Counted from the first letter of the stretch, positions 1 through 19,243 are shown. The stretch: DNA of 64,000 nucleotides from an uncultured Nitrososphaeraceae archaeon (GCA_963779615.1 CAVZZA010000003.1:544001-608000); one strand, 5' to 3'. Numbers and translations are program-made. The notes: generated by a model from the letters alone, not told the origin.

Positions 1-176
1 TTTTGCCATCTCCTTATCATAAATGTCATCAAACTCCTTTACCGTCAGATCGGGGAATGATTTGAAAAGCAATGGTTGTTTGGTCAACATCTCATAAGAG
101 AGTAAAGAAAGGATAGTGAATTAATGAGAAACTGATGGTCATAATGCTGTTTAGGAACAATTATGCAAGAGATTTA
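1..176 (-). mobile_element. Left end of an IS5-family (ISL2-like, DDE_Tnp_4) element, running off the window edge
   Basis: Minus strand translates LLSYEMLTKQPLLFKSFPDLTVKEFDDIYDKEMAK, homologous to the transposase N-terminus at 31200. AATTATGCAAGAGATTTA at 159-176 nearly matches the TIR of element 31165-32208. Confidence 0.85.
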
Positions 177-560
177 ATATGTACATTTGTTTCCATGTTA
201 TTGCGCATCCTAATTAAAAATAAAATTCAACGATACACCTTTCTATTTCTTCTAGTAATACAATGCTCTTTCTCTTTTTCATAGACTGGAATGATACTGT
301 AGTTGTATGTTAGAAGATTGAACCTGGTTACACATTTAACAAATTTAATAAAGGGCCATGTTCAGAAAGAAACTTCTAATATAATCTCACAAACAGCAAT
401 AACTGCATGTAGGAAGAATGTTTTTAACGAAATAGACATGGCATTATACATGCAAATATTTCAGCATATTTATTGTGTGTCTAATAATTGAGGCACCATA
501 GAGTTAGAGAACAGTTAACTACACCCTTAAATAGGAAATTGATAGTAGTAGTGCAGTTTA

Positions 561-758
561 ATGCAATCAAATGCCAATAGTTACAAGTTCTATTTCACCA
601 ACAAAGTAAATCGATATCAGACTATAGAAATTTCCCCAGGCAAAAAAACACTAAAAAAAACACCCGAGACAGTAAAACTGGATTGGGACAACTGCACTTT
701 GGATGTGGTTGGGCAGTTACCAGACGGCAAAACAAGAATCGTTTTTTGCAGCAAATAA
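561..758 (+). CDS. Small hypothetical protein (65 aa)
   Basis: ATG start with a TATA-like CTTAAATA about 30 bp upstream; co-oriented with the next gene; no recognisable motif. Confidence 0.45.
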   Translation: MQSNANSYKFYFTNKVNRYQTIEISPGKKTLKKTPETVKLDWDNCTLDVVGQLPDGKTRIVFCSK

Positions 759-806
759 AAAAAAATAAGCAAGTATATAGGTGATAAGCCTGTCGGCATA
801 AGATAC

Positions 807-1511
807 ATGCTTGGGGTCGACATCACAAAAACATCTTTACCAAAAATAGAGCAATATGAACTGTCAGAAGATAACTCAAAGGTGAGAGACAATTTTGATG
901 CCGGCAAAGAACAAATGAACAACAACCAAAGGGTGGTTTTTCAGCTTGACGATAAATATTGGGTTTGGGATTGGTATGATGGCAAGGAGGGTATTGAGAA
1001 AAGTGAAATATACAGAATTTACCAATTGGTGTCATCTCAAATTGAATCGTCAAAACCATTCACCGTGGGTTTGTTTAGCATAGACATGGAAAATGAAATA
1101 GAAGAAGCAAAGACCAAAACAAGCCCAATAATACAGATAATTACCAACCCGCAATGGACTCTGAAAAATCATGTTCGAGAGGTTCATTGCGCATGGATAA
1201 AGCCAAACATAATCGAGGTATCAATCATATTTAATAACGAACAGTTAAGAAAATTTAAGATTGCCAACAACCTTTATGAAAAATTTAGGCTTTTAAAATA
1301 CGGCAGAACATTTGACATAGAAACGTTTAGAATTTGCAATGATGGTAGTAATCTTAAAGATACTGACAAGAACTACTTTATTTTTGAGAACATCTATTCG
1401 GATACATATGACATAGAATATGACACCATCCATCACGATCCCAAGATAGCACCACATAGGGAAATAAAATACATGTCTAAAAAAAATTTTTCAACCCCAT
1501 TGTTTTTATAA
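807..1511 (+). CDS. Hypothetical protein (234 aa)
   Basis: Long ORF with normal composition; no family recognised. Confidence 0.7.
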   Translation: MLGVDITKTSLPKIEQYELSEDNSKVRDNFDAGKEQMNNNQRVVFQLDDKYWVWDWYDGKEGIEKSEIYRIYQLVSSQIESSKPFTVGLFSIDMENEIEEAKTKTSPIIQIITNPQWTLKNHVREVHCAWIKPNIIEVSIIFNNEQLRKFKIANNLYEKFRLLKYGRTFDIETFRICNDGSNLKDTDKNYFIFENIYSDTYDIEYDTIHHDPKIAPHREIKYMSKKNFSTPLFL

Positions 1512-2360
1512 ATACGTCCAATCATGCGCTGTCTGAGAGTGACAACAATCATGATCAGTGGAAATGGGAATACATTCCGTTCACAAAAGACTCACCGTTA
1601 AAGTTTGGCACAAAATCCAGGTCAGAAATAGACAGTGCATTTACTTCTATTCTCTCAAAGATTTCAGCCTTTTTCATAAAGTGACCATCCAAACCTTGCC
1701 AAGGGCACATGAAAAAAATGGGCGGTCAGTTCATTTATGCATATGACCGTATCACCATTGGCTGCAACATGGTAGCGCACCTAGCATCCTTTAATGTGGA
1801 TACTTGGTTTGTTTTTTTAATAATCAGGGTTGGCGACTTTCCACACAAAACGCATAAAGATATCTTTTATCTTCTACATCATATTTGCTCAATGAATCAG
1901 AAAGGTGTTACACCACACTCCTTTTACCTCCCCTTATTTTTAGTTAGCATTTGCATCCCTCAAGGCAAATATGGGGATACAAGGCAACAGGTAACAGCAT
2001 CTCTCCCAACCCAAAAGCCAGGTAAAGCAACATTGTCACGGAAAAGGACAAACAATAATACTAACTTTTAGTAATCTGTTATTTTATAGAGTACATCAAT
2101 TTTTCAAAACCCAATTTCTGTCAGAACAATAAATACAACAAAGAGAATTGAATAGTTAAATCAAATACCATATGCATTTATAAAAGCAGACAAGACACAA
2201 CTGCGTTTTTTCAACCAAAAAAATATCCAAATGATACCGTATTGTAAACAGATAAGGAATTGAAGGTAAAAAAATTACTTTTTATAACCTAAAGGAGTTT
2301 AAGGGAAATAACATCCAATATCAACAAATATTTAATAACGACCCATCACCCAAAGCAGTT

Positions 2361-2990
2361 ATGGCTAATACCAACACTACATACATTATTAATGGAAAAA
2401 TAAAAGATTCGGAAGGAAACCCCGTGGGAAATGTAAAGGTCGAGGCAATGGATAGTGATCAGAACTGGTTTGAGGATCACAATGATGATTTGATTGATAG
2501 CAAATGGGTAAACAATGATGGAACTTTTCAAATTCCTTTTGAAAGAAAAAGGATTCAAGAAGGATGGCTGGAGGGCAACCCCGATATTTATTTAATGGTA
2601 AGAAACCCCTCGGGCCAGGTTATCCACAGGACTCAAACCAGAAGGGGGCTGGACATTTCCGACAGCAAGAGCCTACATTTTGAGATAATATTAAACTCCC
2701 TTGAAAGACAACAACAGCAATCAATACCGGATCCCTATTTATCAAACAACCAAAGGGTGATTGCGGCATTTGGAAGGCTTGCTGACGTCAGTGAGTTTCA
2801 GATAAGCGACATAGCAAGGGTACTAAGCCTATTGGGTCGCTCCATAAACGCATGGTCCCTTTACACAACAGAGTATATGTGGAATGCCACAGGATATGAT
2901 GGCCCCCAGGTTCCAAAATATCCTTGGAGGGAACCAGGCCACAGTCATGAATTGGGATGGGAGAGTGGACAACGTCAAAATGCCCAATAA
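2361..2990 (+). CDS. Putative small partner subunit of the GMC oxidoreductase (prealbumin/carboxypeptidase-regulatory-like N-domain)
   Basis: N-terminal GKIKDSEGNPVGNVKVEAMDSD beta-sandwich pattern. C-terminal YMWNATGYDGP resembles the W..IGY.GP tail of GMC small subunits. Stop overlaps the GMC start. Confidence 0.7.
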   Translation: MANTNTTYIINGKIKDSEGNPVGNVKVEAMDSDQNWFEDHNDDLIDSKWVNNDGTFQIPFERKRIQEGWLEGNPDIYLMVRNPSGQVIHRTQTRRGLDISDSKSLHFEIILNSLERQQQQSIPDPYLSNNQRVIAAFGRLADVSEFQISDIARVLSLLGRSINAWSLYTTEYMWNATGYDGPQVPKYPWREPGHSHELGWESGQRQNAQ

Positions 2991-5688
2991 CTGCATTTAC
3001 GGTACCGATATCTTTGAGAAGCGCGCTGAAAAATACAAAGTGATTACACAGGACATTGTTATCAATACGGATGTTTGTGTAATAGGCTCAGGCGCCGCTG
3101 GAGCCGTTTTGGCCACCAAATTGGCAGAAGAAGGCAAATCCGTAGTTTTGCTTGAGAGAGGAGGATACCATGACGGAGAGTCAATGAATCAGAGAGAGGC
3201 AGATATGGTTCCACTGCTGTGGAAAAACGCTGGTGCCAACTTCACTTCTAGTTTAAGAATAGCAGTAGCCCAAGGTTGCTGTCTTGGCGGCTCAACTGTC
3301 ATCAATGACGCTGTTTGCTTTAGGATTCCAGAACTTGTGATCAACCAATGGATTGAAAGCGGTGTATTGATTTCAAAAGACGAATGGGATGAGGCCAACA
3401 ATGAAGTATCAAAAAGAATCAACGTCACAAAAGTCACCGAAGAGGAGCTAAACACAAATGCCAAAAAACTTAGGGACGCATGCAGAACATACAAAATAAA
3501 CGGAGAGGAGATCAAGCACTGGGAAAACGAAAGAAACTGCGGCCAGTCTTTTTCCGATCCGAATCTTCATTCCTGCGTAAAATGCGGACTTTGCCACATG
3601 GGCTGCCATTACGATACAAAACAAAGCATGTTGGTTACGTACATTCATGATGCGCTCAGCAACGATAAACTAGACTACAACGTATACTGCAACTGTCAAG
3701 CAGAGAGAATCACCCATAATAACGGGATAGCAACCGGGGTAGACGCAATTTTTATAGATATCGATGGTAACGAAAAACAAAGACTACGCGTCAACTCAAA
3801 GGTCATAATCATTTCTTCTGGCGCCATTGCATCATCAAACCTGTTGCAAAAATCAGTAATTGGCGGAAACAATGTTGGAAAGGGGGTAGCACTCCACCCC
3901 GCACCTTTTGTCATGGGTCATTTCCATGAAAACATCTATGGCAATAGGGGGATACCCATGTCATATACATGTCACCAGTTTGGCGTAACGAACAATGTGC
4001 AAAAAGGGGGGTTTCTGATAGAAAGCATATTCTTACCAATTTTTCAAATGGCCATTGCGATCCCAACATTTGCCATGGACCATAAGAGAATGATGATGGA
4101 ATTCAACAGATACACCATGGCAGGAATTATGACCAGAGATGAGCCTAACGGCAATGTACTTGTATCATATAACGGAAATCCAAAACTGGACTACACCTTG
4201 TCGCCCCAAACAGTCAACGACATGGCAAGGGGAATGGCCATTGTTTCCAAGATGTGGTTTGACATTGGCGCAACAAGCGTAATCACATCGCATATGGATG
4301 TTCCAGAAATAAAAACGAGGGCAGATATTCCAAAGTTAAAAGAGGCAGTAAGAAACAACCCTAATGGTTTAATGGTTGGCTCAGCCCACCCCCAAGGCGG
4401 AAACAAAATGGGCAGCAGCAAGGAAGAATGCGTGGTGGACTCAGATTGCAAAGTATTTGGATTTGATAACCTGTATGTTTGCGACGCCAGTGTTTTTCCA
4501 ACCGCACTGGGCGTAAACCCCCAGCTTACGGTCATGGCCCTTGCAACCATTACAGCAAAAAAAATCATCAAAAATTGGAATAGATATCCAGCAGAAACAA
4601 GGCCTAACTTGGGCAAAACATGCAGAATTTCACAGCCAAGGTTCTGTAGATCCGAGCCAATCGGACAAATGTTTGCAATTGCCGATCATAAAACCAATCT
4701 ATTCTCGAAACTAGGCAACTCAAATGATATAAAACCAATAGTGGGAAAGAATTGGAGGTTTGACCCTGAAAACCAGATCATCCACAATGATTTGTTTTGG
4801 AAGGGAATGTACGGAACAGACAACAATCTTTTGACAAACTTGTTGCGATATTTTGGGGGATTCTATAAAAAATTTAAAAAGGTCGATGAAACAAGGTATA
4901 GCGGAATTACCCATCCTTTTGATTCCCAAATAATTGACGCAAAAAGCATTGCCGTTGAAAAAGAAATACCAGGATATGGTAAAGTAATTCACCTCGAATA
5001 TGAAGACTTTCCCTATTCCACCGCCTACGATTTGCTAAAGATGGTGGATGACAATACAATCCTCGGAAAGGCATTTATGGGACCCTTTGGAAGGGGACGG
5101 GAATTGTTTAACTTTAGTATGTCAAGGGCATATGACATTGACTATATGACAGAAGAGGATCTTTTTACACTATTCAATAGCAAAGAGATGAGTTATGTTC
5201 CCAACGAAAGTGAAATGCGAGGTGTCTGGGAAGGGATGCTGGTCTCCGATTCAGCTGTCACGCCTCGTGCGCAAATCTTTTATTTTGATTATGAGGATGG
5301 CCAAATAGATATGAGGTATTCCTTTGCAAACATGCTGCGTGGTAGATCGGATATAAGCATTACCGACAGGCTGTTTAGATTCGATGACCAAACCCCACTC
5401 CATGACGAAATACGGATGATAACACCAAATTTGATAGTGGGAAGATGGGTTACGGAATGGTCCTCGGAGGATTCGCTAAAACCGTACCTTGATGATTTCA
5501 AACGGCTCCTTGCTATTCCAGCACCCAAAGAAAAAGAATCAGCATATGAAAAGTTAGCCCAAATACTGCCAGTTCGTGGAATTAGACTACCCAAAGAATT
5601 AGGACTCAGTTTTTTGGGTGTCGAGGTGGATGAGGAACACAATAAATCCAGATTAGGCCTGTCCTATATGCTAAAGAAAATAGGGTAA
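2980..5688 (+). CDS. GMC family FAD oxidoreductase with a ~350-aa C-terminal extension
   Basis: GSGAAG FAD motif, LGGSTVIN, CVKCGLCHMGC, GSAHPQGG (catalytic His), DASVFPTALGVNP. Start set at ATG 2980, which overlaps the upstream gene end. Confidence 0.9.
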   Translation: MPNNCIYGTDIFEKRAEKYKVITQDIVINTDVCVIGSGAAGAVLATKLAEEGKSVVLLERGGYHDGESMNQREADMVPLLWKNAGANFTSSLRIAVAQGCCLGGSTVINDAVCFRIPELVINQWIESGVLISKDEWDEANNEVSKRINVTKVTEEELNTNAKKLRDACRTYKINGEEIKHWENERNCGQSFSDPNLHSCVKCGLCHMGCHYDTKQSMLVTYIHDALSNDKLDYNVYCNCQAERITHNNGIATGVDAIFIDIDGNEKQRLRVNSKVIIISSGAIASSNLLQKSVIGGNNVGKGVALHPAPFVMGHFHENIYGNRGIPMSYTCHQFGVTNNVQKGGFLIESIFLPIFQMAIAIPTFAMDHKRMMMEFNRYTMAGIMTRDEPNGNVLVSYNGNPKLDYTLSPQTVNDMARGMAIVSKMWFDIGATSVITSHMDVPEIKTRADIPKLKEAVRNNPNGLMVGSAHPQGGNKMGSSKEECVVDSDCKVFGFDNLYVCDASVFPTALGVNPQLTVMALATITAKKIIKNWNRYPAETRPNLGKTCRISQPRFCRSEPIGQMFAIADHKTNLFSKLGNSNDIKPIVGKNWRFDPENQIIHNDLFWKGMYGTDNNLLTNLLRYFGGFYKKFKKVDETRYSGITHPFDSQIIDAKSIAVEKEIPGYGKVIHLEYEDFPYSTAYDLLKMVDDNTILGKAFMGPFGRGRELFNFSMSRAYDIDYMTEEDLFTLFNSKEMSYVPNESEMRGVWEGMLVSDSAVTPRAQIFYFDYEDGQIDMRYSFANMLRGRSDISITDRLFRFDDQTPLHDEIRMITPNLIVGRWVTEWSSEDSLKPYLDDFKRLLAIPAPKEKESAYEKLAQILPVRGIRLPKELGLSFLGVEVDEEHNKSRLGLSYMLKKIG

Positions 5689-5916
5689 TTTCTTTCGTTC
5701 ACCTATTTTTATAATGTGACAAACCGGGCAATTAGGCAAATAGAATAAGTTATGGCCATAAAGCTGTTTGGGAGGAACTATGCATGATGTCTAGTGTGTT
5801 GATCAAGTTAAATCACTGATCGGTAAATACCATTGCTAAAATGAATGATGAACCAACATCATATAATTAGTGCACAACGACTCCATTGACAAATAACAGA
5901 TGTTTGCCTGAAACGG

Positions 5917-6294
5917 TTAAAGCAGCCTATCACCAACAAGGTTCTTGTATGCCTTTGTTTTTATGATGTCAATTTCCTTTTCCAATATCGAACGCCTTTC
6001 TTTGGTGATGCTCAATATCAAACCAATTGATTTGGCCTTTTCTTTGGAGCGTGTTTTGGAGGAATCGATTATTTTCCACAGTTCTTTTACAGTTTCATCA
6101 AGAGTCAACTTTATCTTCCCATATTCATCCAATAGTTGATCATCGGGATCAATATCTCTTTTGTTTATTTTGCTTTGCCAGTGATTAACGTCCCTGGAAA
6201 TAGTCAATTGGCTTATGTGGAGCATGTTTGATATCTCAAGTTAAGATTACCTTCTTGCGAATAGATCCCTTACTTTGTTTCGTCTCCAATCCAT
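5917..6294 (-). pseudogene. Helix-turn-helix protein with two in-frame stops
   Basis: Reads MDWRRNKVRDLFARR*S*LEISNMLHISQLTISRD, an HTH-type pattern, in frame with ORF 5917..6225. Confidence 0.6.
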
Positions 6295-6498
6295 TTGCCT
6301 TTTTAATTTTTCATGGTTGTTCCAGTGAAATGGGGTTTGTCTTCTTTCAAATGTCCTGTTATTCATATCGTTTTTGAATTAATAAAAATATCCATTTTTG
6401 AAAGTTATTCAATGTTTATTCATATGGTTTTCACAGTTATGCTCGAATTATCTGTTTCTCCATGTATAAAAAATATATAAAAAATAATTTTAGAATAT

Positions 6499-6515
6499 CC
6501 CGCTCAGTCCATCGA
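6499..6515 (+). repeat. att-like direct repeat copy 1 (CCCGCTCAGTCCATCGA; tRNA 3'-end-like)
   Basis: Identical 17-mer at 6499, 13172 and 16860; about 60 further bp are similar between copies 1 and 2. Confidence 0.85.
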
Positions 6516-6836
6516 CATCATTTTGAAAGGATTCGGTGAAATTTAGGTTTGGAAAACCGAATTGTTAACAAAAAACGATTTACAATAATCATGCAACAAG
6601 GCACTGCCAAAACCGATAATTAAATGTTTATTACCTTCATAACAAAGCATAACATAAACACAGGAGATTAAAATCGCGATTTACTTGGGGCTCATCCGAC
6701 CATAAGCCAAACATATATTACCATATAAGGGATATATATTTTTTAAATTAACGATAGAACTATTAAAAATTCACAAGTAATAGACAATTTTATAATATCA
6801 GCCGATTTGATTTGTAATCATAACATTCACAATACA

Positions 6837-7409
6837 TCAATTAATGTTCCTTTTAAAATAAGCACTGTTTTTAACTAATTCCATCAAAGATTTTGTTGCC
6901 ATCTCAAGTGAAATACTCTTGGATTTTGAATAATAGTTGGCCATTTTTTTCAAACCTTTTTCTGCTCGATATATTTTAACTGCGTCTTCCATAGATTTAA
7001 CCGGCCTATAAGAATTGAAACAGGAAGTAAGAATTTGGGTAAGAGTGTCTGCTTTAAAATTTTCATCGTGATGAGACAACAACTTCTCAAGTTCCTCAAA
7101 ATGGGGGTTTAACTGGCCAAAGACTCTCTTGATTTTAAGCTCGTCAACACCAGATTCAAAATTGGCATATTTGGAAAGCCACACATCAAAGATGTCATCT
7201 TTTGCTGTTGGTGGATGTGTTCGAAAATGTTTGAATTTCTTTCTATAAAACACATGTTTTGTTTTTGGCTCGAGTGCAGAAACAGGTTTGATTTTTTTAT
7301 TGTCGATAGTGGCTAAACCATCATGCATTCGCTCATTATGGCGCTCTGCATTATATTTTCTACCAAAACTTTGTTTGCATTCACTACAGGCATATGAATC
7401 TCCCTTCAC
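6837..7409 (-). CDS. C2H2 zinc-finger protein
   Basis: CSEC-x12-H-x4-H (CSECKQSFGRKYNAERHNERMH); paralog at 21760-22338. Confidence 0.8.
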   Translation of the reverse strand: MKGDSYACSECKQSFGRKYNAERHNERMHDGLATIDNKKIKPVSALEPKTKHVFYRKKFKHFRTHPPTAKDDIFDVWLSKYANFESGVDELKIKRVFGQLNPHFEELEKLLSHHDENFKADTLTQILTSCFNSYRPVKSMEDAVKIYRAEKGLKKMANYYSKSKSISLEMATKSLMELVKNSAYFKRNIN

Positions 7410-7439
7410 AAATATAATTATCCAAATTTGATATAAATT

Positions 7440-7456
7440 AGTTACTCCGAGTAACT
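7440..7456. promoter_or_regulatory. Inverted repeat AGTTACTC-C-GAGTAACT just upstream of the TATA box of the C2H2 gene
   Basis: 8-bp perfect arms with a 1-bp spacer, beside TTTATAT (minus strand) about 25 bp before the start. Confidence 0.4.
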
Positions 7457-7609
7457 TATCGTTAACTGCAATTCAGTTATGGTATTCTTAAAAATAATGG
7501 TTAATCAAAAACTTAATATTGAAATGAAACATTTACTAAAATAGGTATTTTTTCTACCGTATATAATTTACCAGAGAAAGAGAAGAGAACCTATTTGTTC
7601 CATATACAA

Positions 7610-9993
7610 TTAAAATTCATTATCATTTTGTAATTTTTCAAGAGCTTTATTTTTGTTATTCAATGCTAATTTGTAATTCGGATCAACGGCCAATGCCTTG
7701 TCAAAGTACAGTATGGCCTTGTCATACTCGCCAAGGCTGGAAAGAGCGACACCTTTTCCATTCAATGCTAATTTGTAATTCGGATCAACGGCCAATGCCT
7801 TGTCAAAGTACAGTATGGCCTTGTCATACTCGCCAAGGCTGGAAAGAGCGACACCTTTTCCATTCAATGCTAATTTGTAATTCGGATCAACGGCCAATGC
7901 CTTGTCAAAGTACAGTATGGCCTTGTCATACTCGCCAAAGTATCCAAGAGCAACACCTTTTCCATTCAATGCTAATTTGTAATTCGGATCAACGGCCAAT
8001 GCCTTGTCATATGACTTTATGGCCTTGTCATACTCGCCAAGGTATCTAAGAGCGCTACCTTTGTAATTCAATGCTAATTTGTCATTCGGATCAACGGCCA
8101 ATGCCTTGTCAAATACAGTATGGCCTTGTCATACTCGCCAAGGCTGGAAAGAGCGACACCTTTTCCATTCAATGCTAATTTGTAATTCGGATCAACTGCC
8201 AATGCCTTGTCAAAGTACAGTATGGCCTTGTCATACTCGCCAAGTCTGGAAAGAGCGACACCTTTGTTATACAATGCTAATTTGTAATTCGGATCAACGG
8301 CCAATGCCTTGTCAAAGTACAGTATGGCCTTGTCATACTCGCCAAAGTATCCAAGAGCAAAACCTTTTCCATTCAATGCTAATTTGTAATTCGGATCAAC
8401 TGCCAATGCCTTGTCATATGACTGTATGGCCTCGGCATACTCGCCAAGTCTGTAAAGAGCATTACCTTTGTCATTCAATGCTAATTTGTAATTCGGATCA
8501 ACGGCCAATGCCTTGTCAAAGTACTGTATGGCCTCGGCATACTTTCCCAAATTGTAAAGAGCAACACCTGTGACATAAGCAACACCTTTATCATTGAATA
8601 TAATTTTGGAGGAGTCAATGTTGACGGGGGGTGGAGAGCTTGATTTTGGTGGGGGTAAGGGAATATGCGTTACAGTAACTGCAACAAAAGCATCATTTGA
8701 GGAGTTTTTGGCATCTGTAACATTAAGCTCAAATCTCAAAACGGCATCTTTGGATATGTCTTCGGGGGCGGTGAATGTGACGACAGCAGTGTTAGCACTA
8801 TCCAATGTGACCGGTGTGCCGGAAATCTGTCTCCATGAGTATGTTATTGGGTCATTGTTGGGATCTGTGCTTTTGCTTCCGTCCAAAGTTACAATATCCC
8901 CAGCGTTCACGGTTTGGCCAGTTCCCGCATTGGCTATGGGCGGTTGGTTGGACTTGGCAAACACTACAATTCGATGATTACCGGTATCAGCCACATACAC
9001 ATTTCCCGATTCATCAACAGCAATACCCAGAGGGTTATTTAACTGTCCATTTCCACCACCTTTTGATCCGAATTGTGTAAGAAAATTGCCACTGCTGTCA
9101 AACTTTTGGACACGGTGACTACCAGTATCGGCTACATAGACGTTACCTATTGAATCAATGGCGATGCTTGCCTGTCCCCTAAACTGCTTTTCACCTGTGC
9201 CATGTGAACCCCATTTTGCAATGAATTTTATTGTATTACCATTGCCATCAAACTTTTGGATGCGGTGATTAAAGGCATCAAACACATAAACATTGTTTGA
9301 TCCATCCACTGCAATGCTTGTTGGGTTGTCAAATTGTCCTTCGCGTAGTCCACTTGAACCAGTTTTTGCAATTAGCGAGCCATCAACAGAATGAATCTCA
9401 AATGTGTTGTTCAAGGTTTGTGTGAAATAAACGTGTCCGCCAGTGTCTATGGATATATCAGGCAGATAAGTTGACCCTGAAAGAACTCCTGAACCAACAC
9501 TCCATGATGTAAGGAATGTTCCATCACTTGTGAATTTTTCTATTCGAGAGTTACCAGAATCAAATACATACACATTTCTCGAAGATGGATCTATTGCTAT
9601 GCCAGAGGGACTGCTAAACTGTCCATCACCGGTACCTTGAGATCCCGATCCCCATGGAGGGGTAATGTTTTTGCCAGTAGAATCGAACACCTGAACTCTA
9701 TGATTTTGCGAATCAACAACATAAATATCATTTGACGATGGATCAATGGCAATGTCAGTTGGTTTGTTAAACTGCCCGTCACCCGTACCTTGATTTCCCC
9801 ATTTAGTAACAAAAGTATAATTCTCGGTGTTTGCCGCATATGCTATACCGGGTGCATCAGCATCATTGTCTTTAACTACACTATAATAAACAGAAATGAA
9901 CATAAAAAGAAATGATAAGGCAAAAGCAGTCATCATAAAGTATGATTTTTTCCTTTCACCATCAATATTATAAAATAAATGATTGATTTCCAT
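7610..9993 (-). CDS. Membrane-anchored NHL beta-propeller + PKD + 9xTPR protein, frameshifted at ~8113
   Basis: N-terminal TM, NHL repeats (GQFNKPTDIAID, VYVADTGNHRI), PKD (NQPPIANAG...LDGSKS..DPITYSWRQ), nine 34-aa TPRs. One G is missing in CAAA[G]TACAG at ~8113 relative to sister repeats, which splits ORFs 8074..9993 and 7610..8101. Confidence 0.9.
7663..8590 (-). repeat. Near-identical 102-bp tandem repeats (TPR units, ~9 copies)
   Basis: AATGCTAATTTGTAATTCGGATCAACGGCCAATGCCTTGTC recurs about every 102 bp. Confidence 0.95.
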
Positions 9994-10161
9994 TACATTA
10001 AAAGCTCCGCATTATCCCTAACACTTGTACAACTGCTTGATATTTAATTATTGGGGAGATAATACAAATGCATCATAAATGATATGCTTTGTATGCGTTC
10101 CTATTTAAAGGAGTAACATGATATACCAAGTCCATGGCATTATCAAAGTCACAATAAGCAG

Positions 10162-11574
10162 TCAGCCTCCCTTGTCATTATTGTGAGTATCATCTCCTTT
10201 GGAGGACCTTCTACGAGCAATTACCGTAATAACAGTTGTCACGATTGTTCCAACTACACCAATTATCGCCACTAACACGGTCGGATCAATAAATGGTTTT
10301 TGTGAATTTGACGTGGAAGATTCTATGGAAGGAGGAGGCTTTACTTTTACGCTAAGTGACGAGGAGCCTATTTCTTTTCCATCCTTATTGAAAGCTGTTA
10401 ATTTTATTATGTATTGTTTAGCTTCATCATATGGATGCGAAAAAGGAAAACTACAATTATCTTCTAGTCCATCACCCCATTCGCAATGAACTCTGTCTAC
10501 ACTGCTATTTTTTATACCGTCAATTTTTATTTCTAAATTTTCATTTTCTGTTATGTATGCTTTAAAATTTGTATCTTTCGATGTTGGCTGGGCAGTTGGC
10601 TGGGCAGTTGGCTGGGCAGTTGGCTGGGCAGTTGGCTGGGCAGTTGGCTGGGCAGTTGGCTGGGCAGTTGGCTGGGCAGTTGGCTGGGCAGTTGGCTGGG
10701 CAGTTGGCTGGGCAGTTGGCTGGGCAGTTGGCTGGGCAGTTGGCTGGGCAGTTGGCTGGGCAGTTGGCTGGGCAGTTGGCTGGGCAGTTGGCTGCGATTT
10801 TATTACAAGTCCATTTTCGAATGCAATGTTGCCCCAAGAGGACGGGTTTACAACAGACATTGAGAGGGGAAAACCGGATTTTTTGCCTGACGGATAATCC
10901 TGCTGTTGGATTGCAAAGCCATATGATTTAGGTTGAGTGGAAAAATGAATTCGAAAGTCCCCTTCCCACTTATTACTTTGGCTAAATATGTTGAATGTCA
11001 TGTTTTTAAAATATTGCCCCAAACCAAGGGTATCGCCAATTGAGGATGTCATCAAGGCATACCCATTTTGCTCTTCGGTTCCTGTATAATATTGAGCTTT
11101 TTGATTTCTTAGTAACATAATGAATTGATCAGAGGGTTTGATGGCATTGTTGCCAGGATTATTGTTACTACTGGAGTCAAAAAGAAAAACTATAGAATCG
11201 GCATCGTCCTGACTGCTGTCAGGTATTGTAAACGTCCCGTATACAGAATTGTATTTTGTTTCATACTTTAGGTTCAGGGTAACATTTTGGTTTATTGAAT
11301 TTGCCGCTGGAAAGGTTATATTTGCATTTGACTCTGGTGCATACTGATTTGGAATGGATCCCTGTTGTTGAATGTAATCCAGAGAACCTTGGGCAATTGA
11401 GAAAACATCAAAATTACTGTTTCCCTTGATATGGGAAGCATGGCAAAAATAACAAATAGATGAAACAAGTAATGTGAACAGCACCACAGTTAGCACAACA
11501 ACAGGAATTCGACAAAGTCGTCTTGCCACGGGATTGAAAAAAATTGAACTAGTCATCATGTAACTTGAGCACAT
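10162..11574 (-). CDS. Surface protein with (QPTA)n linker, PKD domain and C-terminal membrane anchor
   Basis: N-terminal hydrophobic segment, 18 QPT(A) units, PKD motif WGDG...HPYDEAKQYIIKLTA, C-terminal TM followed by RRR. Confidence 0.85.
   Translation of the reverse strand: MCSSYMMTSSIFFNPVARRLCRIPVVVLTVVLFTLLVSSICYFCHASHIKGNSNFDVFSIAQGSLDYIQQQGSIPNQYAPESNANITFPAANSINQNVTLNLKYETKYNSVYGTFTIPDSSQDDADSIVFLFDSSSNNNPGNNAIKPSDQFIMLLRNQKAQYYTGTEEQNGYALMTSSIGDTLGLGQYFKNMTFNIFSQSNKWEGDFRIHFSTQPKSYGFAIQQQDYPSGKKSGFPLSMSVVNPSSWGNIAFENGLVIKSQPTAQPTAQPTAQPTAQPTAQPTAQPTAQPTAQPTAQPTAQPTAQPTAQPTAQPTAQPTAQPTAQPTAQPTSKDTNFKAYITENENLEIKIDGIKNSSVDRVHCEWGDGLEDNCSFPFSHPYDEAKQYIIKLTAFNKDGKEIGSSSLSVKVKPPPSIESSTSNSQKPFIDPTVLVAIIGVVGTIVTTVITVIARRRSSKGDDTHNNDKGG
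10583..10794. repeat. Perfect 12-bp minisatellite (GTTGGCTGGGCA)x17.7
   Basis: Read directly; encodes QPTA on the minus strand. Confidence 0.98.
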
Positions 11575-11631
11575 CTCCGCAAATTCACTACATTAACAAT
11601 TCTTGGTATTGTATGTGCAATTGACAAACTC

Positions 11632-12666
11632 TTATTTTTGAGAGTTAGCCATATTGGTGCTAGATAAATCAGATATTGGGGATGTTTGGGCAAAAACTTG
11701 GATTTTATGGGTTCCCATATCTGCTACATAAACGTTCCCAGACGAATCAGCAGCAATACCATATGGGCTTGTGAACTTTCCCTGACCCACACCTTTTTCT
11801 CCCCACTTGGTAATGAATGCACCATTAGTATCAAACTTTTGAACTCGGTTATTGCCAGTGTCGGCCACATAGACATTACCTACAGAGTCAACGTTAATGC
11901 CCCCTTGCCTAATAAATTGACCATCACCATTACCTTGTTTTCCCCATTTTGCAATGAATTTTATTGACGGACTAGAATCCCCCTCAGTGGTAACCCCAAA
12001 TTTTTGAACGCGGTGATTGTTGGTGTCAAACACATAGACATTGTTTGAGCCATCAACTGCAATGCTCGTTGGGGCACTGAACTGCCCATTGCCCAATCCA
12101 TTTGAACCAAAGTCAGTAAGCAGAGAACCATCAATGGTATCTATTTCAAACTTGTTGGGGGTTGTTTGGGCATAATAGACATTCCCAGAAGCATCTATAG
12201 ATATTCCAGATTGATAAACTGGTCCCGAAGTAACACCAGAAGCAGCCCATTTTGTAAGAAATGAGCCATCGCTTGTGAATTTTTCAATTCGCAAATTGCC
12301 TGAATCAAGCACATACACATTTCCTACTGGATCTATCGCTATGCCTGTTGGGCCACTAAATTGTCCATCGCCTGAGCCTTGTGCACCCCACTTTGAAATA
12401 AATTTACCATCTAAATCAAATACTTGTATCCTGTTGTTCCCGGAATCCACAATGTAAACATTATTGGATGATGGATCCATGGCAATGGCAGATGGTCTGT
12501 TAAACTGTCCATCACCTATACCTTGCGTCCCCCATTCTTTGACAAAGGAATAATTCTCTGAAGTAGTGGCATATGCAAATATCGAATAGGAATTCAAAAT
12601 GGAAATTGAAATAATTGTAGCGATAAAGAATATAATTATTTTAGAAGTCTTTTCTGCTATACTCAT
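11632..12666 (-). CDS. Secreted NHL-repeat beta-propeller protein
   Basis: Signal peptide and about six NHL blades; paralogous to the NHL part of 7610-9993. Confidence 0.9.
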   Translation of the reverse strand: MSIAEKTSKIIIFFIATIISISILNSYSIFAYATTSENYSFVKEWGTQGIGDGQFNRPSAIAMDPSSNNVYIVDSGNNRIQVFDLDGKFISKWGAQGSGDGQFSGPTGIAIDPVGNVYVLDSGNLRIEKFTSDGSFLTKWAASGVTSGPVYQSGISIDASGNVYYAQTTPNKFEIDTIDGSLLTDFGSNGLGNGQFSAPTSIAVDGSNNVYVFDTNNHRVQKFGVTTEGDSSPSIKFIAKWGKQGNGDGQFIRQGGINVDSVGNVYVADTGNNRVQKFDTNGAFITKWGEKGVGQGKFTSPYGIAADSSGNVYVADMGTHKIQVFAQTSPISDLSSTNMANSQK

Positions 12667-13171
12667 TATAACTTACTCATGATTTAAGCATATAAATATT
12701 TTTTTGGTTTTGTTGTTATTTGAAAATTGTTTTCATTTTATTCCTTATACTATATAAAGCAATAATGAATATACATGGCTCTACATTCAATGTATAGTTC
12801 CTTGTTATGCAAATCCGCAAATAGGTTCAACCAATTATTTACATGTTTGAGTTTACAGTTTGGCTTTTACAAAATGACTGTTATCCAATTGCATTAAATA
12901 CTAAAATCCGTTTGTCATTGACACAAAAGTCAAGTTTGGGATTGCAATCAAAACTACACTTGCCATGCAGAATAACACATTGTTGGTTTAGAAGTGGACA
13001 TTAGAAAATTCATCTATGCACCTATTGAATAAAATATTCATAATATAGATAGTATATGTTTAATGACTATCCTTTTTTTAAGGATAACATGCCAAAGCAC
13101 TATTCAGACATATCCACAATCATGTTTGTGTTCTCATTTAACAAACTATAAGAAATTAAAATATGAAAAGA

Positions 13172-13188
13172 CCCGCTCAGTCCATCGA
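13172..13188 (+). repeat. att-like direct repeat copy 2
   Basis: CCCGCTCAGTCCATCGA followed by several GTTAAC-like motifs. Confidence 0.85.
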
Positions 13189-13726
13189 CAATGATTCGGA
13201 AGGTTTTGGCGAATTTTATGCTCAAAAAATCAAGTTGTTAACAAAAAATCGGAAGTTTAGATCGGACATACTGTGAAATAGTTAACAAATTTGCTAACAC
13301 AAAATAAACCTACGATAAGGAAAAGCGGCAGATTTGTAAACATTTCAAAATATTTGTTAACACGGCGGTTTCCAATGCCAACATTCCAGATAGAACATTT
13401 TATATATGAAAAGTGATAGAAATCCCATTCTACTGATGTAATTTTAACATCAACTAGGAATATTATTCCAATATTTATATTGAATTATATTATCATAGAC
13501 ATGGAAAATTAATCTTTGTTAGACTGTGTTTTTTTAATGTAGATTTTGTCATTTTCAATCACGATTGTTATTTTATCTCTCAATGGGTTTTGACTATCTT
13601 CATTGCGCATTTTTTTTGTCAGTTGCCGAAAATCTTGCCCAAAAAATTATTCACTATAGGGCTTAAATCCAAATTGCTCGCTGATTAATATTCTTATTTA
13701 TTGGAATTCACTACCAATAATGTTAT

Positions 13727-15088
13727 ATGGCGAATATAATGAACTTTAGACCATATTATATGAGTACAAGAAAAAAATTGAGTCCCCCAGCCAATATTGC
13801 AGATTTCAATCCAGATTCACCTCTTTCAGAGAAATGGAGTGATAAGCTTTCAACACAATTCAGATCCGAAATTGAAACTATAACAAAAGAACAAAATGTT
13901 ACATCCAGTCAAATAAATTTTTTTAATCCACTGGTACCACCAGAAGGCCAAATTGGTGTATCTCATATAACATGGGGCGGTTTTCCCAATGTCTTAACAG
14001 CAGGACATGGAAGACAAGAAGCATTACGAATAGCAGATAGATTAGAATCTTTTACCGAAGTCCAGGATTCTGACGGAAATAAACTAACATTTAATTTTAG
14101 ACCCCAAGACGAATACCTTGAATGGGTTATAAAAAGGGATGAGCCAACAGGTAAAATAAAGGAAATTGTCTTCACATGTGAAGGACCAGAATATTGGGAA
14201 AACTTGTCTGTTGATTCTGAACTGCTCTTGAGTCTGTACCGAAAGTATGCAGGGCCAGAAGTAAAATTAGGTGATTTACAACATACACAAGATTTATACC
14301 CACTCAAAAGGGATGAGAGTTTAGAGCCGGTTATTAAAAAAGGGGACTATAACAGATGGAACAAATGGAATATATCTTCCGCAATACACCTTACTCATCC
14401 AAGTAACACTTTATTTGCCGAAATTAATTTGGCTGCACGCAGCACAATTTTAAGAAAAAGAGGAGAGACACCCATTACTGATGCCCATGATCTTATTTGT
14501 TGTTCGGGCTATGGAGCTCCGAACAGGGACAGCGACCCAACAATAGGATCTGGTGCAAATTTGGCAGTAAGAGATAGAAATTGGGTAAGCTTACACGATC
14601 CTGTTGGAATATATATAGATGGCATTGATCCATCGCAATTTACAAAACCCGATGGCTCGGCAATACTTGATTTTGCTAACAAGTATTGGAACATAATAAG
14701 GTCAAGTGACGACGGTAAAATGATTCTAAGAGCAAGTGTTAAGGTACCGGATAACGAGATGTTTGACGGTAAACCGTTATTGTTGGGAGACCTTTTGGTC
14801 AATGGAGAGGCTTTACAATATGGCGGGCAAGTGACAGATGCAATCACTGTTGGATTGTATGCTGACATAATACCAAATGGCCCAAAAGCGGTTGCTTTTG
14901 ACTGTCCTAATAAATGCTGCACCAACCCAGACAACCCAGACATAGACGAAGTCGTTCCAATAAATGAAGACTGCAAAACAGAAACTCAAGCATTGTCTCT
15001 TGGTGAAGCGGGAAGAAGTAATCGCTTAACACTTATGGATAAAGGTTATTCGCGAGGAACTGGAGTAAAATACAATGACGCAGTCTGA
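13727..15088 (+). CDS. Uncharacterised protein coupled to the DyP peroxidase
   Basis: 453 aa; motifs RPQDEYLEW, FTCEGPEYW, HLTHPSNTL, CCSGYG..NRDSDP; its stop overlaps the DyP start by 14 nt. Confidence 0.8.
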   Translation: MANIMNFRPYYMSTRKKLSPPANIADFNPDSPLSEKWSDKLSTQFRSEIETITKEQNVTSSQINFFNPLVPPEGQIGVSHITWGGFPNVLTAGHGRQEALRIADRLESFTEVQDSDGNKLTFNFRPQDEYLEWVIKRDEPTGKIKEIVFTCEGPEYWENLSVDSELLLSLYRKYAGPEVKLGDLQHTQDLYPLKRDESLEPVIKKGDYNRWNKWNISSAIHLTHPSNTLFAEINLAARSTILRKRGETPITDAHDLICCSGYGAPNRDSDPTIGSGANLAVRDRNWVSLHDPVGIYIDGIDPSQFTKPDGSAILDFANKYWNIIRSSDDGKMILRASVKVPDNEMFDGKPLLLGDLLVNGEALQYGGQVTDAITVGLYADIIPNGPKAVAFDCPNKCCTNPDNPDIDEVVPINEDCKTETQALSLGEAGRSNRLTLMDKGYSRGTGVKYNDAV

Positions 15089-16697
15089 CTTTGATCTTTT
15101 AGAACCTGTACTGGATGTCACCGACATTCAAGGAAACATAATACCTGGTTTTAAGAAAGATCACCGCACTTTACTAGGATTTACCTTTAATAACTCCAAT
15201 GAGGCAAAAAAGTGGGTTAAATTATTATCATCACATATTTCCACATTGTACAAAGTTCTCAATGTCAATAGAACATATAAATCTGAAAAAAAACGCTTGG
15301 GCGCTGAGCCAACCGACCTAACGGCCACATGGACAAATATTGCCTTTTCATATCCAGGGATAAGAAAATTAGTAAACGACATGGAAGAAATAGAACTGGA
15401 TTATGCCTTTGATAACACGTTTAAAAACGGCTTACCGAAATCATCCATTGGATTAGGGGATTCAACCGATCCAAACGCGGAAGGCAACATTTCCAATTGG
15501 GTGATAGGGATACCCGATAGAGAAGGAGAATCAGATGGCATACCGGACGTTATTTTGATTATAGATAGTGATACTCCTGAAGCTATGGAATCAAAGGTAC
15601 ATTTTATTGAAGGTTTGTCTCCCAGCTATGAAACAAAATTGCATTACAAAGAGGTAGGGCATGATTTGTCATACTACGGTAACGAGCATCTAAGAGGACA
15701 CGAACATTTTGGTTTTAAGGATGGTATTTCGCAGCCGGCTGTAAGAGGCAGATCTTCATCTAGCCCAACTGATTTTTTGACTGCAAGGTCTGCTGATGCA
15801 ACAGATGATCCTAATTCTCCGGAATTCAGCTCTGATGGCAATCCACTTGTAGCAGCCGGTGAATTCGTTATAGGCTATCCAGTTCAAAATTTAAACTATC
15901 CAAGAAGGGTTAATCCAGTAAATCAACCTCACAAACTTTTAAGAAATGGCTCTTATTTGGTTTACCGAAGACTTAAGCAAGATGTGGTGGGTTTTGAGAT
16001 TTTTGCCAATAGAGAAAGCCAAAGAATATCCACTTCATCTGGATTTCCCACCATTAGCCCTCTAAAGTTTAAAAGTCTCATTGTGGGTAGATGGCCTAGT
16101 GGCGCACCGGTCAGTAAATCCCCTGACCAAGACAGTCTTGAATTGGCCACAAGTAATCATAACAACACATTTGGTTATGCAGACGATCCTAATGGTTATA
16201 AAACACCCGTATTTAGCCACATAAGGAAGATAAATCCGAGAGATTTATCAACAGATGATGGTCCACCATCACAAACATTAAAAAGACGGATTCTTAGACG
16301 AGGGATACCATTTGGTCCCCCTTTAGAGATTGGAAAACCAGATACAGTTAATGGGGATAGAGGATTGTTATTTTTATCGTATCAGACATCCATTAGAGAA
16401 CAATTTGAATTTATAGTGAGAAGATGGGCAAATAGCACAGTTAATCCGTCTAATGGTTCCAGCCCAGGGGTTCACCAGGGTGGATTAGATCTTGTCATTG
16501 GCCAAAAATCAGAGACAGGAACATCAGGTAATCGCGTTCGTAGTAACTATTTGCGTGGCAAAGTGAACGATGAAACTATAGAGGTAAAAACAACTACAGA
16601 AGGTTTAAGCATGCTAGATTGGGTCATACCGACTGGAGGTGGATATTTCTTTTCTCCCTCAATCAGATCACTAACAGACATTCTAGGTGCGACATAA
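15075..16697 (+). CDS. Dye-decolourising (DyP-type) heme peroxidase
   Basis: EHFGFKDGISQP (GxxDG), SHIRKINPR (proximal His), RRILRRGIPFG (distal Arg), GGGYFFSPS. Confidence 0.93.
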   Translation: MTQSDFDLLEPVLDVTDIQGNIIPGFKKDHRTLLGFTFNNSNEAKKWVKLLSSHISTLYKVLNVNRTYKSEKKRLGAEPTDLTATWTNIAFSYPGIRKLVNDMEEIELDYAFDNTFKNGLPKSSIGLGDSTDPNAEGNISNWVIGIPDREGESDGIPDVILIIDSDTPEAMESKVHFIEGLSPSYETKLHYKEVGHDLSYYGNEHLRGHEHFGFKDGISQPAVRGRSSSSPTDFLTARSADATDDPNSPEFSSDGNPLVAAGEFVIGYPVQNLNYPRRVNPVNQPHKLLRNGSYLVYRRLKQDVVGFEIFANRESQRISTSSGFPTISPLKFKSLIVGRWPSGAPVSKSPDQDSLELATSNHNNTFGYADDPNGYKTPVFSHIRKINPRDLSTDDGPPSQTLKRRILRRGIPFGPPLEIGKPDTVNGDRGLLFLSYQTSIREQFEFIVRRWANSTVNPSNGSSPGVHQGGLDLVIGQKSETGTSGNRVRSNYLRGKVNDETIEVKTTTEGLSMLDWVIPTGGGYFFSPSIRSLTDILGAT

Positions 16698-16859
16698 TCG
16701 ATGTGTTATAACAGTTGTTTTGGATTTGCTTTATCATAACAAACGCTCAAACTACTTGCCATTTATAGGAATTTTAATCTTTTTTCAATTTACACAAAAA
16801 TAACTCACAGCAATGAAAACCGAATCACAATAGAACTTCTATGCCACATGGAATTCAAT

Positions 16860-16876
16860 CCCGCTCAGTCCATCGA
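16860..16876 (+). repeat. att-like direct repeat copy 3
   Basis: TTCAAT-CCCGCTCAGTCCATCGA; the upstream TTCAAT resembles a T-loop; followed by TGACCA-type motifs. Confidence 0.85.
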
Positions 16877-17277
16877 ACAGCATTCAGCAGATGTGCCCGC
16901 GTGTTTTTGTGCTCATTTTTGTAAAATAGGTGACCATCAAAGCAGATAATTTTGGATTGAAAATAGCAAAAAAGTTGACTATATGGTTGACCATCAAAAC
17001 ATGAAATTATAATTGTTGGTCAACTGTTAGTTGTTAATGGCCAACCATCAACTTATGATACTAACAATCCCCTTGCCTAAACAATTGGCTACCTTGCTGC
17101 AGATTTAAATAATTTCAGCTCAGAAATTTTTTATGCCACTGCACCTCCAAAAGAACCACAATTTCCTTTTCAGGGCCCGCACATATAAATTTGACCGAAT
17201 TTTTGACCGCTTTGACTGTTATATTGAACAATATGACCACAGTTAAATGCTAGTTGTCATATACTAATAATATAATA

Positions 17278-19243
17278 ATGTCAGGCCTAAAACAAACGAC
17301 TGAGTCGCTAGTGATACAGGGCTTCCTAAACGGCAAGTCGATGGACCAAATAGTCTCAGAAACCAATGTCTCAAAAGGCAAGGTGCATTACTTGATAAAT
17401 GACTGGAAAAATGAAATTGGGTTACCCTACATTGACGAGCTGAGGGAGTTTTCGGTCATAGTCAGGAAATCCGGGATATCGATTGGGCAATGCGCCCAGG
17501 GATTTAGGATGATAAGCATACTGAAAAACCTTGGCACACATGAAGGCGATGATAACGACGGTACAGACAACAAATATGAGGGCAACTACAACGAGTTCTC
17601 CTCCTTTATAGATGACATCTACAAAAACTGCAAAAGGGAAGGCGTTACGCCCTCAATCATACCAGTATGGGTTAAGGACCTGTTTGATTTTTACAATTCC
17701 ACCATCAAAGATCAAAAAGAATCATTTTTTCCCATGAATGAAGGACCTGATGGTGGTTTTGACAACAATATGGACAATAACAAAGATAGCAATGCGCGAC
17801 CGAAATCAATTGCAAAAAGATTTGACGAATCTATCTCCAGCCATCCGCATCAAGAGAACAGTCCAAGTTTCAGATCTCAACAAGAATACGATGATGTTGC
17901 TGGTGATGGTGGCGATCCCGATTCCTTCACACATACAAAGGAAAATTTAACAAATTCCAGCCTTAAACAAAACCCCCTCGCCCATACTCCAAATGATGAA
18001 ATCGAGATACCATTCGTTTCCCAAATATCCCTCTACATTCACCAAAAGAAAAGAGAATATTCAAAAGTTGAAAACCATAGAAAAAAGGCTAAAGCGGAAG
18101 TGGAAGACCTCGATTTCCAAAAGACGCTGTTGAAAAAGGTGCTTGACGGGTTAGTCAAAGAAAAAAAGGGCATGGTGTCCTATTTCCAAACATTTTTAGA
18201 ACTAAAAAAAGTGTTACTTGACAAATATGACATTGACATAGAAGAGGCGATAAAAGAGGTTGCCAGGATAATCCATGACTTTAAAGAGAACGGTTATGAT
18301 GCTGCCAGGATAATAGAGGAATATGAAAGAATCAAAATCCCTCAAGTGGCTGATAAGCGAAAATGAAGAAAGGGTCAAAGAAATTCAGGAACAAAGAAAT
18401 TACCTGCTCAGAGAGGTTTCATCCCTAGACTCGCAAGCAAGCATGCACAAGCAAACCATGAGTGTGTATTGGGAACTGGAGGCAATGGGATTTGGGCTTC
18501 CAGAGATAAAACAGATATGGAACACAATTTTGGAGATTGCCGGAACCAGAAAGGATTCAATATCACCACAAGAGGCAGTATCCCTATTCATAAGGGACAT
18601 TGAAGAGAACTACCACGACAAATTTTTACTGGAAGACAAGGTCAAAGAAAAAAGAAATGAGCTTTCTCAGATAAAGCAAGAACTGAACAACAGCAGACTG
18701 GCACTGCAGTTAACGCCATTTGTAGGCACAACCTTGCATTATCTCTTTCAACACGGAATAAGCGAAGGTGACATCATAAGCATCAGCCAATTGGTGACAG
18801 AATCTGCAAACGGCAAGTTACAGTTTGATCCTCAAGACGAGGACAGCAAAACCGTAAATGTCAGTAACAGCAATAACAATAACAATGGCAGTAACAGATC
18901 AGAACACTGGAAATCATTTTTGGGGAATTTGAGAAAATTAGGGGACATAAACTCTTTGATAAAGGAACAACAGGGAACACTGGAACTAATAAGGAAAGAA
19001 ATTGGTGATTTAGACAAGCAAAAACAGGATCTTTCTGCCCACTGCCAAAACGCAGTTTCTTTTATAGGTTTAATGGCCAAACAGATCCACCACTTTAACT
19101 GGTTAGTCGATCATTACTATAATACCACAACCAAAAAGATCAGGGCATCATCTCCCACATTATCCCCATTGCTCATAAATTTGGTATATCTTAATTTGGA
19201 CAACCCGCATAAATCCGACAAGGAGGCAGACGGGGATAAATAG
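17278..19243 (+). CDS. N-terminal HTH, long coiled-coil protein; split by a frameshift at ~18325
   Basis: GKSMDQIVSETNVSKGKVHYLINDW is HTH-like. ORFs 17254..18366 and 18323..19243 join if one base in TATgAAAGAA is removed. Confidence 0.7.

Follow-up and report, generated by a model that had tools for sequence, protein, structure and literature searches.

The window analysed here, a 64,000-nt stretch of DNA from an uncultured Nitrososphaeraceae archaeon (GCA_963779615.1, CAVZZA010000003.1:544001-608000), corresponds to C3:544001-608000 of the genome designated G000, the assembly of which comprises 3.17 Mb in five contigs with 36% G+C and is 92.5% complete. It carries gene units that are separated by a short direct repeat. 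An earlier note, made from the window alone, had described three intergenic copies of this repeat in the same orientation and had proposed that they are attachment (att) sites derived from a tRNA-Ala and delimit cassettes without an integrase gene. The copies were readily confirmed. The 17-mer CCCGCTCAGTCCATCGA occurs exactly three times, at 6499, 13172 and 16860 (copies 1 to 3), always on the plus strand and always between open reading frames (ORFs; flanking ORF bounds 6225/6837, 12666/13727 and 16697/17254). No further match with up to two mismatches is present in the window, and 0 of 100 shuffles matched the 17-mer in a control.

Origin and geometry of the repeat

The window itself contains no tRNA gene. 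ARAGORN detected an intact gene for tRNA-Ala(CGC) 20.7 kb before the start of the window (C3:523250-523324). Its final 13 nt (CCCGCTCAGTCCA) and the TCGA that follows together make up CCCGCTCAGTCCATCGA, and its acceptor stem (GGGCTGA/TCAGTCC) contains both G3:U70 and A73. The prediction that a tRNA-Ala with these identity elements ends in the repeat and is to be found upstream thus proved correct. Islands at tRNA genes (tDNA islands) are recognized by an intact tRNA gene at one end whose 3' part recurs as a direct repeat, and the locus shows this feature.

With up to two mismatches, the 17-bp core has ten matches in the genome. Seven reside on the plus strand of C3, at 523312 (in the tRNA gene), 528528, 533136, 550499, 557172, 560860 and 612667, and three on the other strand, while a reversed-pattern control yielded no match across the genome. 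Profiles of the adjoining arms, described below, revealed two more degenerate direct cores at C3:618542 (five mismatches) and 623446 (three mismatches, with an R1 arm). All nine cores between 523 and 624 kb of C3 therefore lie on the plus strand, in the same orientation as the tRNA and along the 100 kb downstream of it, and three of the nine fall inside the window. The five displaced cores nearer the tRNA are exact, save that at 533136, which has two mismatches in its left part; those at 612 kb and beyond are 2 to 5 bases off the tRNA sequence. A ferritin gene was considered as the end of the array and ruled out, since the degenerate cores at 618542 and 623446 lie beyond it. Contig C4 was at one point thought to begin at a core, which was found not to be so.

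Junction modules, integrase genes and cargo

The sequence to the right of the cores sorts into three classes. Class A arms comprise 250-400 bp with GTTAACA-type iterons and follow the tRNA copy as well as the copies at 550499, 557172, 618542, 623446 and C5:840966. Class B arms, with GTTGACCATCAA iterons, follow the copies at 528528, 560860 and 612667, and class C arms those at 533136 and 901323. Both class A and class B arms recur several times per genome. Two sequences recur to the left of cores as the right arms of the preceding units, R1 (CCCCTTTACCACAAGGAATTTAAT) and R2 (90 bp or more). When ten genomes were compared, nearly all combinations of left modules (tRNA, R1, R2 and others) with right modules (A, B and C) were encountered, and the switch point was the core in all combinations compared. 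Modules thus recombine at the core, just as exchange at this site would have it. The likeness downstream of copies 1 and 2 pointed out in the earlier note amounts to 74% identity over 103 bp; with nhmmer, copy 1 matches positions 1-78 of the class A profile and copy 2 positions 1-276. The sequence noted before copy 3, GGAATTCAAT, is also present.

Neither the class A nor the class B arm represents the native flank of the tRNA, because the sequence after it is different in G048, G020, G015, G007 and G041 and gave no arm-profile match in any of these five genomes. Three of them (G048, G020 and G015; loci L071-L073) share another conserved sequence just after tRNA-Ala(CGC), with which an ORF begins (...FYQFMK...); this may represent another integrase family at the same tRNA. 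In G015, the 5' part of the tRNA occurs a second time (C1:1320128-1320183), 5 kb away from tRNA-Ala(CGC). An RNA or a folded attC-like site was considered for the arms and dropped after an Rfam scan of window positions 6000-18000 had returned no match with E values up to 1, and RNAalifold had given -14.3 kcal/mol over 292 columns for eight class A arms, with unfavourable covariation and no supported structure. Two class A arms contain an inserted short dispersed repeat of about 40-140 bp (window 6567-6605 and C3:623536-623674), the copies of which are 74-97% alike and occupy at least 15 other places in G000.

The earlier note had remarked that the units it named contain no integrase gene. This holds for the whole array. 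Among 141 ORFs of C3:515-640 kb, Pfam detected no recombinase. PF00589 is matched at three loci of the genome, all of them next to other tRNAs and none in the array, and PF16795 at four, again none in the array. A tblastn search of C3:520-625 kb with seven integrases yielded only two chance-level matches of 25-29 aa. The tyrosine integrase next to att that is typical of tDNA islands is therefore absent from C3:520-625 kb and present in six relatives. An integrase of the tRNA-Ala type was not found anywhere in the 92.5%-complete assembly; G000 has only a Gly-type paralogue (C3:1137587-1138633, 40% identical).

In G011, G018 and G016, the same tRNA and core are followed by a class B arm, an ORF of 348-403 aa and a gene for a PadR-like protein. 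The integrase ORF has the orientation of the tRNA and resides within the first of the units delimited by cores. On PF16795 it scores 26.3-29.0 bits, close to the cut-off of 27 bits, and the family alignment contains invariant R, K, R, H and Y residues. An AlphaFold model with a mean pLDDT of 70 found its best Foldseek matches in XerA, the catalytic domain of SSV1 integrase (TM 0.65), lambda Int, XerH and Cre. A search of the PDB by sequence, with the integrase alone or with a 15-sequence profile, yielded nothing significant. The N-terminus gave weak matches to NikR-like (ribbon-helix-helix) proteins with E values of 0.36-0.81. Of 30 loci for this integrase family in the genus, seven, from six genomes, adjoin tRNA-Ala(CGC) and are 58-100% identical to the query, and 13 adjoin tRNA-Gly(CCC), with 27-42% identity, while the remainder are on contigs without a tRNA in the locus. 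In 'suicidal' elements of the SSV type, the integrase gene contains att and is split upon integration. Such an element was ruled out here, as the ORFs of the relatives are unsplit (369-403 aa) and start 260-440 bp past the core.

Over 135-205 bp, the class B arms of G000 (n=3) can be aligned to the arms next to the tRNA in relatives, beyond which the likeness ends; that of copy 3 was aligned with the arms of G011, G018 and G016. Judging from these alignments, the integrase genes have evidently been deleted from the class B units. In the third unit, genes for two proteins of 370 and 306 aa sit where relatives have the integrase. For the 370-aa protein, the best ESM Atlas score was 0.87, a weak lead to HTH_23-like proteins of Nitrososphaerota. 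This unit is a decayed autonomous element with a truncated arm, not a designed cassette. By tblastn, the stretch from 12862 to 13013 was recognized as what is left of a GSDH gene, its first ~51 codons, which are joined to the R2 arm. The 6.7-kb unit thus ends in a truncated GSDH cassette and is a fusion of at least two units. The cargo had been described correctly in the earlier note, as Pfam assigned TPR, NHL, PKD, PT-repeat and zinc-ribbon proteins to the 6.7-kb unit and a DyP-type peroxidase with a 453-aa partner to the 3.7-kb unit (Table 1). Fragments of insertion sequences (IS) are frequent throughout the array. As the cognate integrase is absent, the array of G000 is probably static and eroding, with degenerate distal cores, inserted IS and short repeats, and fused units.

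Table 1 Features of the array in the window (positions counted from its first nucleotide)
Feature	Position	Strand	Basis or remark
Tail of preceding array unit (C3:533153-550498)	1-6498		2-mismatch core at C3:533136
GMC oxidoreductase	2884-5688		Pfam; in preceding unit
att core, array copy 4	6499-6515	+	tRNA-Ala(CGC) 3' end + TCGA
Class A left arm, broken off after ~60 bp	6516-6576	+	nhmmer, profile 1-78
Integrase-free 6.7-kb unit	6516-13171		ORFs and Pfam; genes all on minus strand
Zinc-ribbon protein	6837-7409	-	6.7-kb unit
TPR protein	7610-8101	-	6.7-kb unit
NHL/PKD/TPR protein	8074-9993	-	6.7-kb unit
PT-repeat protein	10162-11574	-	6.7-kb unit
NHL protein	11632-12666	-	6.7-kb unit
R2-type right arm	12862-13171	-	81% identity to G016 junction
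att core, array copy 5	13172-13188	+
Class A left arm, about five GTTAACA-type iterons	13189-13446	+	nhmmer 1-276, E 3.6e-70, from 13172
453-aa protein of no known family	13727-15088	+	3.7-kb unit
DyP-type peroxidase	15075-16697	+	3.7-kb unit; Pfam DyP_N 9.9e-13, Dyp_perox_C 4.1e-7
R1-like right arm (GCCACATGGAATTCAAT)	16841-16859	+	comparison with R1 arms
att core, array copy 6	16860-16876	+
Class B left arm, GTTGACCATCAA iterons, cut before integrase gene	16877-17063	+	nhmmer E 1.8e-56, from 16860
370-aa and 306-aa proteins of no known family	17254-19243	+
Long unit to next core at C3:612667	16877-64000		continues past window end

The long unit is rich in IS and contains peptidase, LodA-like, ParB and response-regulator genes. 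Several of its genes deserve mention in their own right. A Trp-halogenase-like flavoprotein is encoded beside a LodA-like L-lysine epsilon-oxidase (44750-47584), the N and C domains of which lie in overlapping ORFs (45937-46881 and 46826-47584), suggesting a frameshift or a split gene. The gene for a thermolysin-type M4 peptidase is two ORFs from that for an emfourin-family protein (50850-52913), probably a protease with its inhibitor, and is followed by genes for M35, M28 and M1 peptidases (54812-60119). A 441-aa protein (29759-31084) carries a C-terminal prokaryotic YEATS domain (pYEATS, 4e-15). At 63647-64045 (C3:607647-608045) the array contains a divergent second copy of the PTH2 peptidyl-tRNA hydrolase gene; the orthologue of a relative is 69% identical to the copy at C4:199826-200173 and 36% to the array copy. 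Genes for a response regulator and a ParB-like protein (48869-50353) lie 32 kb into the unit. Homologues of both (43-48% identity) directly follow the tRNA-Ala integrase in G012 (C1:517057-518709), and the two may be core genes of the integrase-bearing element.

Possible mobility of the integrase-free units

A pattern consisting of the core and the start of the class A arm was searched for in 34 genomes of the genus and returned 19 class A junctions in nine of them. A PF16795 match within the class A unit was found at none of the 19 junctions, many of the contigs being short, and in five of the class A genomes no PF00589 match was present on the junction contig. A 1.73-kb unit with one GSDH gene (PF07995, 4.8e-29) lies between two cores in G016, G005, G021 and G023. 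Among three species its identity is at least 95%, and it has three different upstream neighbours; G005 adds little, as it is close to G016 throughout. When the units of G021 and G023 were aligned with that of G016, identity was 86-100% per 50-bp bin from core 1 to core 2, except for three bins at an insertion in G005. Upstream of core 1 it was 26-54%, and beyond core 2 it was 66-86% in the next arm and then random. The block of high identity starts no more than 2 bp from core 1 and drops at core 2. For comparison, chromosomal DNA upstream of the tRNA is 83-87% identical between G016 and G023 and 78-88% between G016 and G021. The boundaries of this cassette thus lie at the core, as they do in tDNA islands. 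The breaks of homology at the repeats that the earlier note had proposed to look for are therefore found for the GSDH block of G016 versus G021 and G023, that is, in relatives and not for the units of the window itself.

With the DyP unit as a DNA query, matches were obtained in 12 of the 34 genomes. Outside G000, all of them fall within positions 1-478 or 3691-3850 of the query, i.e., in the junction modules, and the cargo interior has no DNA match in the 33 other genomes. Among the soil-metagenome contigs of the Logan collection, for which run shares are small (0.05-0.14) and carry no claim about habitat or strain, a contig of 10,003 bp contains the DyP cargo (window 13609-16834) with 184 differences and about 94% identity. 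It is diverged over 69 bp of the same length spanning the core at 16860, matches again over 16904-17013 and has flanks unrelated to the window.

We interpret the locus, with a probability of about 75%, as an accretion array of tRNA-targeted elements and integrase-free cassettes that is decaying in G000. The 17-mer would be the recombination core (att) of elements that enter the 3' end of tRNA-Ala(CGC). In this genus, a tyrosine integrase of ~400 aa with a ribbon-helix-helix-like N-terminal region and an SSV/Xer-like catalytic domain is encoded next to the tRNA on a class B element, and it would presumably recombine a 14-17-bp core on circular DNA with that of the tRNA. As every such event would restore the tRNA and leave a displaced core behind the new unit, repeated integration would build a head-to-tail array. 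Two kinds of units would be present, decayed integrase-type elements that kept the class B arm and lost the integrase gene, and integrase-free cassettes with a class A left arm and an R1 or R2 right arm, which could move only with an integrase from another unit or from an incoming element. We infer that new units enter at the tRNA-proximal core and that class A cassettes are mobilized in trans. The same holds for the choice of the enzyme: since class A and class B arms carry different iterons, action of the class B integrase on class A cassettes is put forward as a proposal.

Several further observations do not sit easily with an accretion array. Cores outside it lie on the opposite strand (C5:840966, C3:901323 and C3:968254), and the arm-profile search also detected an arm-only copy on the minus strand at C3:188528. 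The likeness of the copy at C5:840966 to the junction at 6499 extends over 210 bp upstream and ~1 kb downstream, so that this copy is explained by segmental duplication, not by integration. G021 and G023, drafts that are 94% complete, carry the GSDH cassette without a PF16795 match. One class A unit of G016 contains a 60-aa remnant of an integrase C-terminus, so that at least some such units are decayed autonomous elements; it is the single remnant among the 19 junctions, and decay is plain for class B units. Homology to the soil contig, at a threshold of 90%, stops at the ends of the arms and not at the cores. No excision product, circle or core-to-core joint was seen, and the material consisted of assembled soil-metagenome contigs, which are uninformative on excision. 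Finally, as the assembly is incomplete, the integrase could sit in its missing part.

The array could in principle have arisen by decay only, every unit once having been autonomous and having lost its integrase later, so that integrase-free units never moved as such. This would accommodate the G016 remnant, the class B arms that are cut at different points (135-205 bp in G000, 43-202 bp in relatives), the GSDH remnant in the 6.7-kb unit, which illustrates that deletions fuse units, and an integrase pseudogene after the same arm type in an array at tRNA-Gly(CCC) treated below. Nevertheless, we consider it unlikely. The single-gene GSDH unit of 1.73 kb is too small for an integrase, its identity of at least 95% in three species exceeds that of the flanks (78-88%), its three upstream neighbours switch at the core, and none of the 19 class A junctions has an integrase gene adjoining the arm.

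Alternatively, the arms of 150-400 bp might serve as anchors for host recombination after DNA uptake, the core being a relic. Arms are indeed long and 75-95% alike between species, the homology of the soil contig ends at arm ends, and the C5 copy demonstrates that a junction can be copied without site-specific integration. Homologous recombination is nonetheless improbable, as the GSDH block begins within 2 bp of core 1 with nothing shared upstream, its identity drops at core 2 and not within the arm, left and right modules meet at the core in every combination, and the integrase gene resides at the tRNA in six relatives. A repeat dispersed in the manner of a miniature inverted-repeat transposable element (MITE), or a chance likeness to a tRNA end without any role in integration, would account for the three or four copies on the other strand outside the array. 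We regard it as very improbable in view of the identity to the 3' end of the intact tRNA heading the array, the direct orientation of nine out of nine array copies, the empty shuffled and reversed-pattern controls (0/100 and 0 matches) and the lack of an Rfam match or a supported fold. Assignment to MITEs or other dispersed repeats was rejected, as these are recognized by terminal inverted repeats, random orientation and lack of tRNA identity, none of which applies. Taken together, the interpretation of the locus as an accretion array, also favoured in the earlier note, is supported; none of the three findings named there as contradicting it (no tRNA with this 3' end, scattered copies in random orientation, synteny breaks away from the repeats) was made.

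Related systems and other tRNA-anchored arrays

Tandem accretion involving cis-mobilizable elements (CIMEs) is described for streptococcal integrative and conjugative or mobilizable elements in the accessible part of PMC5704250. There as here, units lie between att copies at a tRNA 3' end, many are without integration genes, whether by loss or from the outset, arrays accrete as att is used again, and new elements integrate after decay. Both the unit 6516-13171 and the unit 13189-16859 are flanked by att on either side and carry no genes for integration or transfer, as is characteristic of CIMEs. In contrast, the array described here is archaeal, shows no conjugation genes and comprises nine or more cores, its integrase is of an archaeal PF16795/SSV-like type with a ribbon-helix-helix-like N-terminus, and its cassettes have conserved arm families of their own and can consist of a single gene. 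The variable, tRNA-anchored tycheposon islands of Prochlorococcus, as far as the accessible part of bioRxiv 10.1101/2020.12.28.424599 describes them, share neighbours parted only by a partial tRNA, newcomers that push older units inward, remnant integrase fragments and extra partial tRNAs, and niche-adaptive cargo. Tycheposons differ in being bacterial and in being defined, in the same part of that source, by an integrase clade of their own and a replication module, neither of which was found here; Pfam detected no primase or helicase module in the array, and class A units are without any integrase. For Thaumarchaeota, the accessible part of Krupovic et al. 2019 (PMC6563490) reports a median att length of 17 bp, 57% of integrations in tRNA genes, and tyrosine-recombinase elements that can form arrays by re-using one site. 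Phylum and tRNA targets are the same as here, whereas those cryptic elements were found via, and are defined by, the integrase gene; that part of the article describes neither long arrays nor cassettes with conserved arms that lack an integrase. A limited literature search found no paper on the present array, which is not proof of absence.

Integrons have attC sites that are imperfect palindromes folding as single strands, and their integrase gene, intI, lies outside the cassettes and is divergent from the array. Here, what is repeated is the 3' end of a tRNA, flanked by long arms, and not a folded attC, and the integrase of the relatives resides inside the first excisable unit, on the strand of the tRNA, with a match to the archaeal SSV-type family PF16795. 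Identity with integrons was therefore rejected. What is shared, judging from the accessible part of a report of integrons in Archaea (bioRxiv 10.1101/2022.02.06.479319), is an integrase gene beside the primary site and a one-orientation array of small units, some with a single gene and no recombinase. Of the two systems with which the earlier note had compared the locus, the tycheposon island thus remains a fitting parallel, while the likeness to integrons is architectural only. The system is best classed among the tRNA-anchored accretion arrays, as a new archaeal variant that carries integrase-free cassettes.

A second array was encountered on the minus strand of G000 (C3:1108462-1138846). 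It is headed by tRNA-Gly(CCC) and contains five direct copies of the 3' end of this tRNA over 30 kb. Three of the four displaced copies have behind them an arm similar to that of the tRNA copy, with TTGTTGAC iterons. An intact PF16795 integrase adjoins this tRNA; behind the copy at 1116679 there is an integrase pseudogene with stops. For tRNA-Val(TAC) and tRNA-Ala(TGC), too, the 3' end recurs 28-39 kb downstream (C1:489829-518647 and C3:386331-425581), and a PF00589-type integrase is encoded next to each of these tRNAs. As these ends recur with adjoining integrases, tRNA-anchored repeats seem to be general in this genome.

The genomes of soil ammonia-oxidizing archaea are large and variable, and little is known of the routes by which they acquire genes. 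The array makes up a stretch of 100 kb, about 3% of the genome. The mobile DNA of these archaea has been surveyed by searching for integrase genes, an approach that would miss integrase-free units such as those described here, and more such DNA can be found by mapping repeats of tRNA 3' ends together with the two arm families. A single-gene cassette that is common to three species and bounded by the core offers a concrete and testable route of gene flow. Traits of the cell surface are suggested by the cargo, which consists of NHL/TPR surface proteins and peptidases besides a DyP peroxidase and GSDH and GMC oxidoreductases. Tentatively, and at somewhat less than even odds, the genus may possess an integron-like, tRNA-anchored capture platform in which the ribbon-helix-helix integrase of tRNA-Ala(CGC) moves small integrase-free cassettes in and out in trans and cassettes circulate between species. 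If so, cassettes, some of them with a single gene and each with a dedicated pair of arms, would supply secreted oxidoreductases, peroxidases and surface proteins, and, given the like arrays at tRNA-Gly(CCC) and tRNA-Val(TAC), genome flux in the lineage would generally proceed in this manner.

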